Origin: Patescibacteria group bacterium
Lineage (GTDB): Bacteria > Patescibacteriota > Patescibacteriia > Patescibacteriales > UBA12465
Direction: 5' to 3'
DNA: 64,000 bases
Assembly: GCA_041671365.1 (NCBI GenBank)
Contig: JBAZBP010000001.1
Coordinates: 30,081 to 94,080, forward strand
The notes beneath the pieces were generated by a model. That model worked only from the letters and a program-made list of their open reading frames with translations. It was not told where the DNA came from and made no database searches. The position numbers and the translations under genes were made by a program. Of this stretch, positions 3,345 through 28,169 are shown piece by piece. Position 1 is the first letter of the stretch; the number at the start of each line of letters is the position of its first letter.

Positions 3345-6300
3345 TTATTTTTTTAAATCATCTAGTTTAACGCTTAATAATTTGCTAACGCCATCGGCCT
3401 CCATAGTCACGCCGTATAAAATGCTAGCGCGCCGCATGCAGGCGCGATTGTGAGTGATAACAATAAATTGAGTTTTATTGGATAAATCATCGAGAATTTT
3501 GGCCAAGCGCTCCGAATTAGATTCGTCGAGCGCAGCGTCGACTTCATCTAAAACCACAAAAGGAGAAGGGTTAGCGCTAATAATGGCGCAAATTAAAGCG
3601 ATAGCGGTTAAAGCGCGTTCTCCTCCCGAGAGCATGGTAACCGCTTGAATTTTTTTACCAGGTGGCGTAGCCTGAATCTCAACTCCGGCTAAACCGACCG
3701 CATTGTGTTTTTTGAGAAATTTTATAGTTTTTAGTTTTTCGTCCACTTCATTTTTTATTGCTGTTTCTACTGGTGTTAGACCGGCGGCTAAATTAAGATT
3801 AGTATTAAAATTAGCGCTCGTCGGATTATTTTTGTTTTCTTCTTTTTCTAAATCAGCAATCATTAATTTAAAGATTTTGGCGGTACCGCCGTTAAATAAT
3901 ATTTTAAAATATTCATTAAATTTTTCGGCAATAACTTTAAATTCAGAATCAAAACGATTTTTAATATTTTTATCTAATTCATAAATTACTTCTTCTAATG
4001 ATTTAATAGCATTTCCCAGATCGCTTGTCTGACCGCTTAAGAAATCATAACGCTTTTTAGTATCTTCATATTCTTTTTCGGCTTCCGGGTCGATTCCCCC
4101 GATAAGTTCTAGTTGGTTTTTATTGTTAGCGATGATTTTATGTAAATGTTCTGGGTCGTTTAATTCTTTTTGAAGAGGATGATTTTTAATAGCGGTTACC
4201 TCTAACCCGTCATTTCTTATATTGAGTTCTAAGTCTTCAAGTTTAGTTTCTTGACGGGTTGCCTCAATTTGAAAATTATTAAGTTCCGTAGAAATTGAAT
4301 TTATTTCTTGCTGGAGCGATTGAATACTTTTTTGATAGTCGAACATCTGGGTTTTCTCGGCTTCTTTTTGTTGATTGAGTATCTCTAATTTATTTTCTAA
4401 ATTTTTTATTTCTTCGTTTAAAGTAAGCAATTTTTCATTAATTTCTTTTTTTTCTTTTTCCTGACCGGCGGCGTCGACTTTAATTTGACTTTTTGCTATT
4501 TTGCTGTCGATATTATAAATTTCTTGAGTGATTTGCGTTTTTTTAGCCTGTAGCAAGCGCAGGCGCTCATTTAAAGATGAGGCCTTTAAACGTGAATTTT
4601 GGATTTTGTCTTCAATAATTTGTTTTTTTTCGTTTAATTCTTTGAAATTATCGTTTTTAATTAATTCGTTTATATTTTTTTCTAGAGAACTTATCTTTTT
4701 ATTGATAGCGGCCCTTTCTTCTTCTATTTTTTCAGCATCAAATTTAACCTGAGTTTTTTCCAGTTTAGTTTTAATGTCCTCGGTTTCCCGAGTTATCTGT
4801 TGGACTTTGTCTTCTAATAGATGCTGTCTTTCGTTGGCGGCCGCCAGACGCAAGCCTTCCTCATTTAAATCATTGTTTATGTTTTGGCGTTCCTCGGTCA
4901 AGGTTATTATTTCTTCTTGAATTGTTTTTATTTGTTGCAATTTATCATTGCTTTTATCAGCTAGAAATACTTTTATTTTAGTTTGAAAATCTTTTTTAGC
5001 GTTAGTGATTAATTCTTTAATCTTGATTAATTCGGTTTCGCCGTCGATAGTATCAAGTGTTTTAAGAAAATTATCGATTAGGCGACCAATTTCGACATGG
5101 TGGTTTTCGCTAGTGCCGGTTTTTTTTAGTTGTTGGTTGATTAGAATTATTTCTCCGTTCAAACGGTTAAGTTTTTCTTGTTGAGAATTTAATTTATTTT
5201 CTAAATTATTTTTTTTAGTCGGATTACTGGTTTGTTTTAAGTTTGTAATTTCTTGGTTAATTTTAATTAACTCTGTTTGTAATTCTTTATTTTTATTGTT
5301 AAGCCAGGAGACATCAAATTGTCCCTGAACCTCCAAATTAACCTCCAAGACCGCCTCAAGTTTGGATATTTGTTTTAAGTATTGGTTTTTTTCGGAGATT
5401 AAGTCGTTTATTTTAACCTGGTTGTCGTTAACTTTAATCAATTCGGCTTTAATATAATCAAGTTCGGCCTGTAAACGACTTTCTTCCGATTGAAAATTAT
5501 TTTTTTCTAAAGAGTTTATTTCCGCTTTCAGATTTTCTAGTTCGAGGGTCAACTCTGCTTGTTTGTTGTGGAGCCAAGAAACGTCAAATTTTCCCTGGGA
5601 TTCGAGTTTAACCTCTAGTTCTGCCTGTAGCCTGGCCAGTTGCTTAAGATATTGATTTTTTTGGTCGTTCAGTCCTTTAAGGCGCGGTTGCAGTTCGTTA
5701 ATTTCTTGAAAATTATTAGCCGAACGGACCCTATTTAATTCTTCATTAAATTTATTTAATTTCTTTTCTTGTTCCAATTTAATTTTTTCGTTGGACAGTA
5801 AGCTTTGGTTGGAATGATTTAATTTTTGGTTAATCTCTTGCCAAAGAAATCCATAATAGTTTAGTTGGTCGGTTCGCAAGGTGTTTTCAATTTCACTGCG
5901 GCGTTTTAGTTTTTCTACTTGGCGGGTTAAACTTTTAAGACGGGGTTTGATTTCGGTTAAAAGCATCTCAACTTGCTGGAGATTTTCGTAGCTATTTTCT
6001 AATTTATTTAGGGCCGAGTCGCGTTTAATCTGGAATTGTTTAACTCCGGTTGCTTCGTCGAAAAAATCTTTTCGTTCAGCCGCCGAAGAACTTAAAAAAT
6101 TTTCTACCATTCCCTGGCCGATGACGCTATAAGTTTTTTGACCGAAGTTCGCCTTAGCTAAAAGCATTTGAATGTCGGCAAGACGGACGCGATTGTTATT
6201 AAGCAAATATTCACTTTCTCCGTTGCGATATAATCGGCGAGTAATTACAATTTCATCACAACTTATTATTAATTGATCTAAGTCGCTCTCTTTTTCCAGA

Positions 6301-9863: not shown

Positions 9864-9937
9864 GGAGTGGTAGCTCAGTTGGTTAGAGCGCCTGCCTGTC
9901 ACGCAGGAGGTCGCGGGTTCGACCCCCGTCCATTCCG
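9864..9937 (+). tRNA. tRNA-Asp (anticodon GTC), no encoded CCA
   Basis: Acceptor ggagtgg/ccattcc, anticodon stem cctgc/gcagg with loop ctGTCac, T-arm gcggg-ttcgacc-cccgt. Confidence 0.9.
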
Positions 9938-9981
9938 CTAATAAAAATATCCTAACTTTGTTAGGATATTTTTATTATTGT
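9922..9981 (+). repeat. Direct repeat copy 1 (60 bp): tRNA-Asp from mid T-loop to its 3' end, plus the terminator
   Basis: Identical base for base to 10134-10193 by direct comparison of the two strings. Confidence 0.95.
9943..9978. terminator. Bidirectional hairpin terminator (copy 1)
   Basis: 13-bp perfect stem aaaaatatcctaa / ttaggatattttt with loop ctttg. A-run on one side and T-run on the other. Confidence 0.75.
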
Positions 9982-10133
9982 ACGAGTTAGGGGGTCGAAC
10001 AGGTCAGAAGCGAGACACGAGACGAGGCGGAAGCCGAGGCGAGTAGACGAGCGATCGCAAAGTATCCGGGGGATACTTTGCGCTGACCCCGGACAAGTGA
10101 GCTCGCCGCAAAATGGCGGCGAGCGAGCGCGAA
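9982..10133 (-). repeat. GC-rich tRNA-trailer module, copy A (tRNA-Asp associated)
   Basis: 152-nt GC-rich island in AT-rich DNA. It starts with gggggtcgaac (9990-10000), the reverse complement of the tRNA-Asp T-loop/T-stem gttcgaccccc. Perfect hairpins at 10057-10081 and 10102-10123. Shares blocks (gaacaggtcagaagcgag, cgagcg repeats) with copies B-E. Strand is given as the one on which the GTTCGA motif reads forward; this choice is arbitrary. Confidence 0.8.
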
Positions 10134-10193
10134 ACCCCCGTCCATTCCGCTAATAAAAATATCCTAACTTTGTTAGGATATTTTTATTATTGT
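10134..10193 (+). repeat. Direct repeat copy 2 (60 bp): partial tRNA-Asp 3' end plus terminator
   Basis: Identical to 9922-9981. It ends exactly at the base opposite the discriminator of the convergent tRNA-Arg. Confidence 0.95.
10155..10190. terminator. Bidirectional hairpin terminator (copy 2), shared with tRNA-Arg
   Basis: Same 13-bp stem hairpin as 9943-9978. It abuts the 3' end of tRNA-Arg on the minus strand. Confidence 0.75.
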
Positions 10194-15370: not shown

Positions 15371-15555
15371 CGCTAGTTCGCTGTCTCACTTATCCTCTGG
15401 CAAGTGGGTCTTCAGAATTTACTAAAAATCCTTGTATTTACGGGGTTCATGGGTTTATCCGATGCTAAATTGTCTTGGCGTGGAGGGGGGGGCTGCCTGC
15501 CGGCAGGCAAGGATTTCTCGCGCTCGCTCCCGACCTGTTCGAACCCCTTTTCGAT
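15371..15555 (+). repeat. GC-rich tRNA-trailer module, copy C (diverged, no intact tRNA neighbour)
   Basis: Ends ctcgcgctcgctcccgacctgttcgaacccc (GTTCGAACCCC at 15537-15547), like the other copies. Hairpin tgcctg-ccgg-caggca at 15494-15509. Upstream block ctcacttatcc resembles ctcacttgtcc in copy A. The 5' boundary is uncertain. Confidence 0.6.
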
Positions 15556-15593: not shown

Positions 15594-15677
15594 TACGCGG
15601 AGTGTTATAGATGTTATCAGAACTGAGATGTTTAAAAACATCAGCAAACATTAAAATTTTTCGCTCGCCCGATATAA

Positions 15678-16334: not shown

Positions 16335-16423
16335 ACAAAATTAATAAATATTGAATAATATAATTATAGCTAAAATTATCGAAAAAATCAATTTAATCTT
16401 AAATTAGGACCATAATATTTTAC

Positions 16424-16564
16424 CTACGCTCGCCGTCGCTCGCTCATTCGTTGTCCAGAACTTGCGTCCGACCTGCCCCCGGCAGGTCGTCAGACGCTCG
16501 CTGCAATATTCGCCTGCTGGCGAATATTTAGCTCGCTTCAAGTTTGTTCGAATCCCGTCGACGA
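16424..16564 (+). repeat. GC-rich tRNA-trailer module, copy D
   Basis: 109/113 identity between 16444-16556 and copy E 26090-26202 (counted by hand). Perfect hairpins at 16469-16489 and 16505-16528. GTTCGAATCCC at 16546-16556 differs at 1 of 11 positions from the tRNA-Ser T-loop/T-stem gttcaaatccc. Confidence 0.8.
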
Positions 16565-16601: not shown

Positions 16602-16640
16602 ATGCGGAGAGGGTGGGACGCACTTGGAAAGGTTATCAAG
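16602..16640 (-). repeat. tRNA-Ser-3'-end-like motif, copy F2 (candidate att remnant)
   Basis: Plus-strand tgcggagagggtggga (16603-16619) matches the 3' end of the tRNA-Ser gene (18470-18486) at 16 of 17 positions, in the same orientation. The rest aligns with F1. Confidence 0.55.
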
Positions 16641-18462: not shown

Positions 18463-18471
18463 GACAATCTG

Positions 18472-18558
18472 CGGAGAGGGAGGGATTTGAACCCTCGATG
18501 CCCTTTCAGGCATACCGGTTTTCGAGACCAGCGCACTAAACCACTATGCGACCTCTCC
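18472..18558 (-). tRNA. tRNA-Ser (anticodon CGA), no encoded CCA
   Basis: Minus-strand cloverleaf: acceptor ggagagg/cctctcc, anticodon stem ctggt/accgg with loop ctCGAaa, long variable arm atgcctgaaagggcat, T-arm gaggg-ttcaaat-ccctc. Confidence 0.9.
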
Positions 18559-25517: not shown

Positions 25518-26047
25518 ATATTTGTGTGTGTTTTCGAGTATAACGGAGAATTTAGTTTTTGCCAAATTACAAAGTTAAATTTAGAAACAAAAAAGAGGCT
25601 CATAAAAGTCTTTTGTTATTATTTATAGACTGTTTTGAGCCTCCATTCCTGAATTTATCAGGATTAATTAAAGGGCATTTGCTAACTTAAATGCGTCGTT
25701 CTTACCAACTTTTAGCAAATTTATTTTATATTTTTTACTAATTTTAGATGAAATCTAGTAAAAGTTTCTTTTTGATTTTTATCAGATTTAATCTTAATTG
25801 ATTAGTTGTGTAATTTGCTCGGTTTAATTTCTTATTAAAATTCTTTGTCACGTTAGCATTGACAATGTTTTTATAAAAGTTAGTTAAAGAACTTATAATT
25901 ATTATAGCATCTAAAATAAATAAGGTCAAATATTGTAGACTTAAATAGATAATATTAAATTATTTATTTAATATTAGTAAAATTATTGAATTTTATATGA
26001 ATGTATTAGTATTTAAGTCCACGCCATTTTAGACTTAAAATTAATAT

Positions 26048-26056
26048 TTATACACA
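26048..26056 (+). promoter_or_regulatory. DnaA-box consensus match (TTATACACA)
   Basis: Fits TTATNCACA exactly. Confidence 0.35.
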
Positions 26057-26067
26057 AAAAACACAGG

Positions 26068-26076
26068 TTATCCACA
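26068..26076 (+). promoter_or_regulatory. DnaA-box perfect consensus (TTATCCACA)
   Basis: Exact match to the canonical 9-mer. Same orientation as the box at 26048 and 20 bp from it. Confidence 0.35.
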
Positions 26077-26085
26077 GATTTTAGT

Positions 26086-26210
26086 ACGGTCATTCGTTGT
26101 TCAGAACTTGCGTCCGACCTGCCCCCGGCAGGTCGTCAGACGCTCGCTGCAATATTCGCCTGCTGGCGAATATCTGGCTCGCTTCAAGTTTGTTCGACTC
26201 CCATTACAAT
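26086..26210 (+). repeat. GC-rich tRNA-trailer module, copy E (tRNA-Cys associated)
   Basis: Near-identical to copy D. Contains gttcgactccca (26192-26203), which is the T-loop/T-stem of the convergent tRNA-Cys in inverted orientation (12/12). Hairpin at 26115-26135. Confidence 0.8.
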
Positions 26211-26216
26211 AAATTT

Positions 26217-26254
26217 CAAACATAAAAGACAGCCGATGCTGTCTTTTATGTTTG
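26217..26254. terminator. Bidirectional hairpin terminator shared by tRNA-Cys and module E
   Basis: caaacataaaagacag-ccgatg-ctgtcttttatgtttg: a long perfect stem that directly abuts the tRNA-Cys 3' end. Confidence 0.7.
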
Positions 26255-26328
26255 AGGCTTGAGTGGGAGTCGAACCCACGAATGGCAGTTTTGCAAACTG
26301 CAGCGTTAGACCACTTCGCCATCAAGCC
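26255..26328 (-). tRNA. tRNA-Cys (anticodon GCA), no encoded CCA
   Basis: Minus-strand cloverleaf: acceptor ggcttga/tcaagcc, anticodon stem gcagt/actgc with loop ttGCAaa, T-arm gtggg-ttcgact-cccac. Only 26 nt downstream of the tsaD stop. Confidence 0.9.
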
Positions 26329-27513: not shown

Positions 27514-27569
27514 AAAGCTAAATCTAGACATATAGATTTTTATTTTGAATAATTTAAGTTTAGTAAAAT

Positions 27570-27641
27570 GGTCCCTTCGTCTAGTGGTTAGGACGTCAGG
27601 TTTTCATCCTGTTAACAGGGGTTCGATTCCCCTAGGGACTA
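27570..27641 (+). tRNA. tRNA-Glu (anticodon TTC), no encoded CCA
   Basis: Acceptor ggtccct/agggact (G1-U72), anticodon loop ttTTCat, T-arm agggg-ttcgatt-cccct. Closely parallels the E. coli tRNA-Glu layout. Confidence 0.9.
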
Positions 27642-27647
27642 CTAACT

Positions 27648-27679
27648 AAAAAATACTCAGCGTATGTTGAGTATTTTTT
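27648..27679. terminator. Bidirectional hairpin terminator after tRNA-Glu
   Basis: aaaaaatactca-gcgtatgt-tgagtatttttt. Confidence 0.7.
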
Positions 27680-27690
27680 AGTTTATATTC

Positions 27691-27834
27691 AAGGTGGGGA
27701 ATCGAACAGGTCAGAAGCGAGCTTAACCGAAGGCCAGTAGGCCGAGGTGTAGCGAGCGTCGGACGAAGCTCCGGGGGAGCTTCGGACGCTGACCGCGACA
27801 ACGAACGAGCGGACTGGTCCGCGAGTGAGGCGAA
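27691..27834 (-). repeat. GC-rich tRNA-trailer module, copy B (tRNA-Glu associated)
   Basis: Starts with ggggaatcgaac (27696-27707), the reverse complement of the tRNA-Glu gttcgattcccc (12/12), then gaacaggtcagaagcgag as in copy A. Hairpins at 27764-27784 and 27809-27822. Ends ggcgaaa just before the repeated tRNA 3' end. Confidence 0.8.
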
Positions 27835-27851
27835 ATTCCCCTAGGGACTAC
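27835..27851 (+). repeat. 17-bp direct repeat of the tRNA-Glu 3' end (attcccctagggactac)
   Basis: Identical to 27626-27642 inside tRNA-Glu. Flanking bases differ on both sides. Confidence 0.85.
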
Positions 27852-27899
27852 GGATAAAAAATAGTTTTTATTAAAAATAAAAACCACTAATCAAAAAAA

Positions 27900-28169
27900 T
27901 TAGTGGTTCCGAAACTTTATTAGAAAATACAAATTATAGAGGGCGCCACCGTTTACCACAATTGCTCCAAATATTAAAGACCAGTCAATATAATACATGC
28001 CTTTAATAAATAGAATGCTTTGTGCGAAAATAACGGCTAACGGCAGATAAATTGAAACGTTTTTAGTGCTCCCATTTTTTCTAATTTTTTTTCCTTGAGC
28101 ATATTGCCCATATGCAACGACTATCCAACAAATAGCCAACGCGCAACTCCAAATCAATTGTTCTGTCAT
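27900..28169 (-). CDS. Three-helix membrane protein, SemiSWEET/PQ-loop-like
   Basis: 89 aa with three hydrophobic helices. YAQGKKIRKNGSTKNVS resembles the PQ-loop motif. A hairpin terminator overlaps its stop codon. Confidence 0.5.
   Translation of the reverse strand: MTEQLIWSCALAICWIVVAYGQYAQGKKIRKNGSTKNVSIYLPLAVIFAQSILFIKGMYYIDWSLIFGAIVVNGGALYNLYFLIKFRNH

Follow-up and report, generated by a model that had tools for sequence, protein, structure and literature searches.

The 64-kb window analysed here (the whole stretch of 64,000 nucleotides from a contig of a Patescibacteria group bacterium) contains an intact gene for tRNA-Glu(ttc) that is followed by a unit made up of a terminator hairpin, a short spacer, a folded module of about 150 nt and a second copy of the tRNA 3' end. 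A sister unit is located behind tRNA-Asp(gtc). The genomes of Patescibacteria are tiny, and little is known about the mobile DNA and the non-coding RNAs in them. The parts of the unit at tRNA-Glu and its counterpart at tRNA-Asp are as follows (window coordinates, strand in brackets).

27570..27642 (+): tRNA-Glu(ttc), intact, with the unit behind it (ARAGORN; Rfam tRNA 62.1 bits)
27626..27642 (+): left copy of the 17-bp direct repeat, tRNA-Glu A58 to C74 (3' end of the gene)
27643..27684 (+): palindromic terminator hairpin of tRNA-Glu, A/T-flanked, taactaaaaaatactcagc...gttgagtattttttagtt, possibly native
27685..27695 (+): spacer of 11 nt between terminator and module
27693..27848 (+): complete module, match to the family covariance model with 139.1 bits
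27696..27707 (+): 5' (left) arm GGGGAATCGAAC, reverse complement of tRNA-Glu positions 53-64
27709..27794 (+): helix P2, GGTCAG (27709-27714) paired with CTGACC (27789-27794), with a three-way junction and hairpins P3 and P4 inside
27830..27834 (+): conserved 3' end of the core, GCGAA
27835..27851 (+): right arm, second copy of tRNA-Glu A58-C74, whose first 7 nt are the 3' strand of helix P1
9864..9938 (+): tRNA-Asp(gtc), the sister locus
9986..10147 (+): module behind tRNA-Asp, 138.7 bits

The window contains the 17-mer that constitutes the direct repeat (ATTCCCCTAGGGACTAC) in exactly two places, 27626-27642 and 27835-27851, which confirms the coordinates given in the first-pass annotation of this DNA; no match was obtained in 100 dinucleotide-preserving shuffles, even when two mismatches were allowed. 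The repeat-to-repeat period is 209 bp at tRNA-Glu and 212 bp at tRNA-Asp, and the right junctions read GAGGCGAA followed by ATTCCCC (Glu) and GAGCGCGAA followed by ACCCCC (Asp), both as described there. Its statement that the TTCGA of the tRNA is in effect replaced by GCGAAA is approximately right; GCGAAA is only one variant of a family rule, according to which the core finishes with GCG plus 2-4 variable nt and A58 follows at once. The GC-rich block at tRNA-Glu begins with GGGGAATCGAACAGGTCAGAAGCGAG and finishes with GAGTGAGGCGAA. The terminal inverted repeats reported for it (GGGGAATCG...CGAAATTCCCC at Glu, GGGGGTCG...CGAAACCCCC at Asp) are present and represent the closing helix (P1) of the minimum-free-energy fold, the 5' strand of which is formed by GGGGAAT(CG) of the left arm at tRNA-Glu. 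The stem of the Glu terminator is similar to the terminator of a module-bearing unit at another locus (L044a), and its 3' tail is similar to the terminator and downstream bases of a tRNA-Glu site that lacks the module (L106). The position of the spacer is occupied by a small covarying hairpin, P0, in some other family members.

At tRNA-Asp, the gene is followed by a terminator, 8 nt, the homologous block and then the copy of the tRNA end. The layout is hence shared between the two loci, as had been proposed, but the Asp repeat, taken to be 17 bp as well, is really 60 bp long (9922-9981 = 10134-10193, flanking the module). It takes in the bidirectional terminator in full as well as 3 nt from the end of the convergent tRNA-Arg gene and is the only long perfect repeat among the 25 units that carry a right arm.

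Distribution and fold of the module family

A covariance model (R1) was built from 32 complete copies (alignment A2) and returned 88 matches in 68 sources, including five in the window. When one genome per species was scanned for the exact pattern, 43 stretches were obtained; those with high GC content are chance matches within genes, and those with low GC content share the architecture. A metagenome scan added 58 loci, which brings the family to about 70 non-redundant copies. The copies from the pattern scan were found almost exclusively in low-GC Patescibacteria contigs (Falkowbacteria, Buchananbacteria and further groups). Three loci with typical units (L030, L034 and L038; 38-47% GC, Patescibacteria-like context) are labelled 'uncultured Gammaproteobacteria', which is probably a binning or labelling error. 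Divergent module variants that differ in the sequence of P2 or in the interior are situated at distal array positions (L050, 4147-4296; L060, ~345-480; L061, 1052-1210; L030, ~5050-5130 on the minus strand of the locus) and suggest a superfamily wider than model R1 captures.

Rfam 15 at the gathering threshold, applied to the window and nine loci, reported tRNAs only, and an Rfam scan of 27560-27920 by E-value gave the tRNA and noise, with nothing relevant. A pattern scan of viral contigs and blastn searches against phage and plasmid collections produced no match to the module, and no description of it was found in a literature search. The module family is apparently undescribed so far.

Independent minimum-free-energy folds of the 32 copies gave one common architecture. 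The closing helix P1, with an extension of 2-3 bp, is followed by the 6-bp helix P2 (GGUCAG/CUGACC) around a three-way junction; P3 consists of short helices split by GA/GA internal loops and has a GNRA-like loop, P4 is a hairpin of 9-12 bp, and P5 is a 3' hairpin. In an alignment of 76 distinct sequences, which was fitted to the covariance model so that the following figures are somewhat inflated, standard pairs were present in 85.7% of the cells, compared with 27-41% when the 3' partners were slid by 1-3 columns; both sides had changed in 35 of the 44 pairs, and the covariation score was 0.347 as against ~0.05, with none of 500 shuffles reaching the observed values. Despite the model-fitted alignment, the fold is supported by the independent folds and by clear swaps of P2 in other copies (GGUUGG/CCAACC, AACUUG/CAAGUU and GGAUUG/CAAUCC).

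The strand that folds is that of the tRNA, on which 159 G-U pairs compare with 69 A-C pairs and purines make up 61% of the bases. Folding of the region both as RNA and as single-stranded DNA had been suggested as a check. As RNA, two window copies reached -69 and -62 kcal/mol (z = -4.4 and -4.9); the DNA folds were weaker (z of about -2.9 to -3.9; -3.3 and -2.9 for the same strand of these two copies), and the energies do not tell which molecule acts.

Geometry, arms and junctions of the units

Altogether, 36 non-redundant units adjoin a tRNA gene, all of them co-oriented with it. They use 11 isoacceptors for seven amino acids (Gln x2, Cys, Gly x2, Glu x2, Ser x2, Asp and Trp), to which the tRNA-Ser(cga) array of the window would add a twelfth. 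The recurrence of one architecture at so many genes upholds the earlier argument for a defined mechanism rather than a random duplication. The order is tRNA gene, terminator, short spacer and GC- and purine-rich module of ~150 nt, and complete units are closed by a copy of the tRNA 3' end that runs from A58 to the discriminator or C74. This right arm is present in 25 of the 36 units. These 25 have a period of 213.8 +/- 7.3 bp (range 200-238), and the exact repeat most often measures 17 bp and usually finishes at the tRNA end, so the period and junction seen in the window are conserved across copies. The module lies 63-83 nt from A58, mostly 70-80 nt. Minimal units contain no open reading frame (ORF).

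The left arm and the invariant TCGAAC together are the reverse complement of tRNA positions 53-63/64, with the 5' arm of P1 complementary to positions 59-63/64 and TCGAAC complementary to G53-A58. The copied tRNA end contributes its first 7 nt as the 3' arm of P1, and the folded module hence shows a base-paired copy of the 3' half of its own tRNA's T arm. In the target DNA, positions 53-64 of the top strand are the complement of the 5' arm, and positions 58-73 are identical to the 3' arm. The inverted repeats had been said to include tRNA-derived bases, and they do: they form a covarying helix whose 5' arm follows the identity of the adjoining tRNA, reading GGGGAA (Glu), GGGGG (Asp), TGGAT (Gln), GGGAT (Ser), GGGAG (Cys) or GGGGC (another Asp). 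Between the left arm and the adjacent tRNA, pairing is uninterrupted over 6-9 nt, starting from A58. At positions 59-64, tRNA and right arm mismatch in five cases; the left arm pairs with the tRNA version in 5/5 of these and with the right-arm version in 2/5. At one locus (L053, 1139-1425), the right arm (AATCCCTATCCCCGAGCA) is unlike the 3' end of the adjacent tRNA-Gln (AATCCTTGTCCCCGAGCC), whose T stem is self-consistent, and the left arm goes with the tRNA-Gln, not with the right arm.

Cores located at Glu, Gln and Ser tRNAs are 95-98% identical, and the homology ends exactly at the core borders, with no homology between the flanks. Within the window, the cores at 16.5 kb and 26.1 kb are likewise nearly identical by eye, and their arms read GGGAT (Ser) and GGGAG (Cys), respectively. 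The right arms never carry a non-encoded CCA and must therefore be copies of DNA or precursor RNA, not of mature tRNA. One copy (L040, ~2400-2430 on the minus strand of the locus) shows a 29-nt insertion (ggagactaaaaaagagtcgcgaggcta) between the core end GCGA and the right arm and is otherwise 99% identical in its core to that of L027.

Empty sites, arrays and cargo

Orthologous loci were obtained via TsaD homologues with 70-75% identity. In L102-L106 and L108, both tRNA-Glu and tRNA-Cys are intact and module-free; L107 covers tRNA-Cys alone, which is also empty. Orthologous sites are filled in L109, L110 and L111. The Asp/Arg pair is empty in L104 and L105, where the two genes are 80 nt apart, compared with 253 nt in the window.

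Of the seven tRNA genes in the window, four have a module behind or downstream of them, and the 64 kb hold five copies. In addition to those at tRNA-Glu and tRNA-Asp, the following copies were detected.

26057..26206 (-): module behind tRNA-Cys (26254-26328, -) and its terminator, 48.6 bits
16404..16560 (-): module ~1.9 kb downstream of tRNA-Ser(cga) (18471-18558, -), 59.5 bits
15434..15551 (-): internally deleted module at the distal end of the tRNA-Ser array, 14.6 bits

The left arm of the tRNA-Cys copy, GGGAG, fits tRNA-Cys, and the 3' domain and the right arm are missing. The copy at 16404-16560, which has AACTTG/CAAGTT as P2 and no right arm, comes after a pseudo tRNA-Ser 3' end and a terminator and is separated from tRNA-Ser by two cargo ORFs. 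The copy at 15434-15551 contains the third occurrence in the window of the start of the conserved block (15523-15542, -) and is followed by a degenerate tRNA-Ser 3' end that is broken by a GC-rich palindrome. This palindrome of ~18-20 nt, cc(t)tgcctgccggcaggcag(g), is found within module copies or right arms of unrelated contigs (window 15483-15502, -; L012, ~935-955; L067, inside P5; L050, ~4125-4145) and looks like a separate tiny palindromic insert.

Directly after the truncated tRNA-Cys module, at 25930-26060 (read on the minus strand), there are DnaA-box-like motifs (ctgtggataacctgtgtttt...) and repeated ttaagtc/gacttaa. The same block adjoins tRNA-Cys in L102, L104, L106, L108-L111, L036 and L081. 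It is probably a replication origin region, with modules inserted between tRNA-Cys and the block.

Tandem arrays in which the distal members are more degenerate were seen at six loci (L017, L034, L050, L060, L061 and L099). Arrays enclose genes for an NYN-domain protein, an HNH endonuclease, an EEP-family nuclease, glycosyltransferases, a peptide deformylase, a TrmB regulator and a methylase with an R.Pab1 restriction partner. In the window, a PsbP-like protein, an unknown ORF and an S51 peptidase are encoded between tRNA-Ser(cga) and the copies at 16.5/15.5 kb. At L058, a repeat of ~250 bp, composed of terminator, spacer, module and tRNA-end copy, brackets an HNH cassette, and the two cores are 99% identical.

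Units that are parted from their tRNA by genes have an AT-rich, diverged cognate tRNA 3' end ahead of their terminator. Such pseudo 3' ends were noted in the window (16605-16640, -, and 15603-15632, -) as well as in L012, L020, L024, L038, L047, L064, L076, L077 and L080; they follow the pattern GTTCnAA, 5 nt, TCCnn, 7 nt, AGCA, in which the 5-nt insertion after the T loop is constant. An ORF of ~240 aa with an NYN domain (PIN-like nuclease) lies between tRNA-Glu and the module in four loci (L081, 2602-3384; L036; L042; L062), and remnants of its 3' end precede the terminator in L044 and L082.

Interpretation and comparison with known elements

An intact tRNA, a repeat that spans T loop to tRNA end, polar arrays and trapped cargo together form the classical signature of tRNA-targeting, tRNA-rebuilding integration, as established for integrases of the T-loop class. 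The size of ~210 bp, the lack of an enzyme gene, the use of one core at many tRNAs and the selected fold lead us to favour, tentatively, a non-autonomous, integron-cassette-like insertion element in which the folded module would be a targeting or attachment site. We infer this role of the module, as well as the enzyme that would act on it, and we class the units as non-autonomous insertion cassettes that are linked to tRNA genes and have a structured module for recombination or targeting. Each unit would be a miniature integrative cassette, and recombination would take place between the segment of the tRNA at positions 58-73 and its module-linked copy. The catalyst might be RecA, once DNA has been taken up, or an enzyme supplied in trans that recognises the folded module. 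In this way, terminator, spacer and module, with or without cargo, could be inserted or excised without harm to the tRNA, and repeated events would build arrays at the tRNA-proximal end. As a fragment that reaches from the tRNA to the right arm is homologous to an empty site at both ends, the RecA route would account for most of the terminator combinations.

A number of observations weigh against the cassette-like element. Crude motif searches, and Pfam on a subset of the ORFs, recognised no integrase, transposase, HUH enzyme or reverse transcriptase in the vicinity of the modules, so that the acting enzyme is hypothetical. Specifically, a crude regular-expression scan of ~480 kb of low-GC loci gave no tyrosine/serine recombinase, HUH or reverse-transcriptase motif; Pfam searches with 30 neighbouring or cargo ORFs gave no mobility enzyme; all-against-all clustering of 671 flanking ORFs retrieved only syntenic housekeeping genes, NYN proteins and glycosyltransferases as recurring groups; and none of the four tRNA arrays in the window adjoins an integrase detectable by a crude motif scan. 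A scan for sigma-70 sites between tRNA-Glu and the module found no promoter-like site that would belong to the module itself. One core family is found at at least 11 isoacceptors, and we know of no classical tRNA integrase that serves so many isoacceptors with one core. Further points concern the terminators. That of tRNA-Cys is the same in the empty L109 site and in the filled sites L036/L081, the tail of the window Glu terminator and the spacer are like the empty L106 site, and L109 and L044a have spacer and module in common, but not the terminator. Judged from these sequence comparisons, the proximal terminator may be native, and they suggest that the unit entered behind it rather than at the T loop. 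In about half of the Glu units, moreover, no terminator follows the right arm. The comparisons L109/L036/L081b, window/L106, L109/L044a and L053 can be read either way if the whole tRNA region was laterally replaced.

A direct repeat of the tRNA 3' end from the T loop onwards is established as a mark of tRNA-targeted integration (Reiter, 1989; Williams, 2002). The units agree with such integrative elements in having a 3'-end direct repeat with a rebuilt tRNA (17 bp at Glu, 60 bp at Asp). Tandem islands at ssrA in Dehalococcoides, an example of targeting to tRNA or transfer-messenger RNA genes in the T-loop sublocation class, reportedly form arrays that likewise show tandem polar insertions with cargo trapped between the repeats (PMC3146451). 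Unlike these elements, the module unit comprises only ~210 bp, has no recognised integrase, uses one core at at least 11 isoacceptors instead of a single target tRNA, contains a covarying folded core with a 5' arm antisense to the T arm, and in some cases seemingly sits behind a native terminator.

The likeness to integrons lies in arrays of promoterless-gene cassettes, each with an imperfect, structured palindrome at its border whose outer boxes pair (R''/R' in attC, P1 here), in the strand-specific folding and in the apparent entry of new units at the proximal end. In contrast to attC, the anchor is a tRNA gene and not an attI site beside intI, no IntI was found, and the conserved RYYYAAC/GTTRRRY boxes, with the GTTRRRY core, are absent; conservation lies in the interior of the module and target-dependent variation in its outer boxes, the opposite of the situation in attC. 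Besides attC, the closest analogy is offered by the folded single-stranded attP of CTX-phi-type integrative mobile elements exploiting Xer, in that the folded strand would be a duplex mimic of the chromosomal target on which a host recombinase could act. However, the target here would be a T arm and not dif, and module units contain no phage genes.

The match between arms and target, together with the service of one core to many tRNAs, suggests either structure- or RNA-guided homing to tRNAs or a purely recombination-driven selfish cassette. The first of these could mean that the module, as RNA or folded single-stranded DNA, is part of a programmable tRNA-homing insertion system, in which the two arms would read both strands of the T arm and an enzyme acting in trans would place the cassettes behind the targeted tRNA gene or at its 3' end and leave the tRNA unharmed; we see a real, if minor, chance of this.

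A guide RNA for a recombinase or transposase encoded elsewhere appears unlikely. Insertion would then not be the source of the 17-bp repeat, which would serve as a spacer-like guide. Pairing would involve the top strand of the tRNA gene (53-64) for the 5' arm and its bottom strand for the 3' arm (58-73), and spacer, module and 17-nt guide would be delivered ~65-75 bp downstream, behind the native terminator, without the tRNA ever being cut. Type V-K CRISPR-associated transposons home to tRNA genes and insert tens of bp downstream. The module resembles the omega RNAs of TnpB/IscB (IS200/IS605), the bridge RNA of IS110 and type V-K homing guides in that a scaffold of ~130-150 nt at the element end is succeeded by ~17 nt that are identical to the target and lie beside a fixed motif, in this case the invariant T-loop motif. 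A guide would also fit the agreement of the left arm with the tRNA rather than with the right arm, the near-identical cores at different tRNAs with changed arms alone, the RNA-like fold and G-U bias of the sense strand, the terminator that often follows the right arm, the spacer and module shared by L109 and L044a, and the proximal terminator that appears native in some comparisons. The narrow range of A58-to-module distances (63-83 nt) counts in its favour as well, but may just mirror the usual length of a terminator. On the other hand, no TnpB, IscB, IS110 or Cas12k/Tns was found nearby, no candidate effector turned up in the scanned flanks of ~70 loci, the module matches no Rfam family, and no promoter-like site was found upstream of it. 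The guide-like segment is partly paired to the 5' arm, with its first 7 nt sequestered in P1; tandem insertions are common, the opposite of the target immunity of Tn7-like systems; and the 60-bp repeat at tRNA-Asp and the diverged duplication of a terminator at L093 misfit a guide of fixed length.

We consider it more unlikely still that the module is a host non-coding RNA in the tRNA 3' trailer. Such an RNA might insulate transcripts downstream of weak AT-rich terminators or make them more stable, or its antisense 5' arm might allow it to act on the cognate tRNA; its copies would have spread and stayed similar by homologous recombination and gene conversion instead of transposition. The density of copies (four of seven tRNA genes in the window), their presence in several Patescibacteria lineages and the strong purifying selection on the structure are in keeping with a host function. 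Read-through transcription is plausible, since the orientation is always that of the tRNA and no separate promoter was found, and identity between copies ends exactly at the core borders, as it does for gene-conversion tracts. However, relatives with 70-75% TsaD identity lack the module at the same tRNAs, many copies are truncated, internally deleted or decayed, and the tandem arrays with trapped accessory genes look selfish or insertional; moreover, this explanation gives the copied acceptor strand no role.

An origin by copy choice is improbable. It would involve template switching of replication forks at terminator and T-arm hairpins by way of the T-loop-like microhomologies of the core ends (TCGAAC; GCGRA-A58), or else reverse transcription that jumps between pre-tRNA and module RNA, and would need no dedicated recombinase. 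T-loop-like motifs do lie in opposite orientation at both core borders, the left junction and the spacer are variable, the 2-4 variable junction nt resemble filler, and some duplications extend from A58 to the insertion point (60 bp at Asp, ~74 nt, diverged, at L093 and 37 nt at L024). Yet the terminators on the two sides are unrelated in most units, the missing non-encoded CCA on right arms excludes mature tRNA as a template, no reverse transcriptase was found in the flanks, and selection for the elaborate fold is left unaccounted for.

Last, attL/attR scars of prophage or island integration, with the GC-rich block as a decaying, functionless att arm, would explain the textbook direct repeat of the tRNA 3' end from the T loop and the cargo genes between units, but such debris is very improbable given a block that has stayed conserved, with covariation, in ~70 copies at 11 isoacceptors, and it is also at odds with minimal units of only ~210 bp without phage or island genes, with the lack of matches in phage, plasmid and viral collections and with the lack of a recognised integrase in the flanks.

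Three other groups of elements share single traits with the module. Miniature inverted-repeat transposable elements (MITEs) and repetitive extragenic palindromes or bacterial interspersed mosaic elements (REP/BIME, mobilised for instance by REP-associated tyrosine transposases, RAYT) are also short, non-coding, multicopy and hairpin-rich repeats behind terminators, with no transposase in cis; unlike in MITEs, the inverted repeats of the module depend on the target tRNA, association with the tRNA 3' flank and orientation are strict, and there is no short target-site duplication, the repeat being a tRNA 3' end of which one copy lies ~70 nt from the left end of the module. Class C group II introns are structured RNAs located directly behind terminator hairpins, but the module of 150 nt starts with GGGRWUCGAAC where such introns have GUGYG...AY ends, has no domain V/VI and matches no Rfam intron, and no reverse transcriptase was found. 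In retrons, the a1/a2 pairing of msr-msd is topologically like P1, whereas no ORF with a YxDD motif was found in the flanks.

Several more specific candidates were rejected. A tRNA-like minihelix or substrate of RNase P/Z was discarded as the acceptor 3' strand finds no complement in the 7 nt that precede the left arm, and a hammerhead or other known self-cleaving ribozyme as the CUGA...GAAA spacing misfits and no Rfam match was obtained. A primer-binding site of the retroviral type, or a copy of mature tRNA, is incompatible with a left arm that spans positions 53-64 and not 59-76 and with the absence of non-encoded CCA. The unrelated terminators that flank most units argue against a classical target-site duplication after a staggered cut, and hairpin opening in the flank, similar to P nucleotides, would put the arms side by side and not around the core. 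A molecular ruler for the offset was not used, as the negative correlation between hairpin and spacer length is partly an artefact of hairpin calling.

The module borders small cassettes of accessory genes, some of them defence-like (restriction-modification, HNH and NYN nucleases), and in this way marks variable regions. Target-matched arms in combination with one core for many tRNAs are hard to square with classical tRNA integrases. If an effector exists, the module could provide a compact programmable insertion system, and if it belongs to a homing system, it would represent an integron-like, RNA- or structure-guided cassette platform across many Patescibacteria tRNA genes. As it stands, the family model can help to annotate metagenome-assembled genomes by flagging insertion hot spots and partial tRNA fragments. 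Whether homing or recombination drives the cassettes, either outcome would alter the annotation of tRNA-linked genome plasticity in Patescibacteria.

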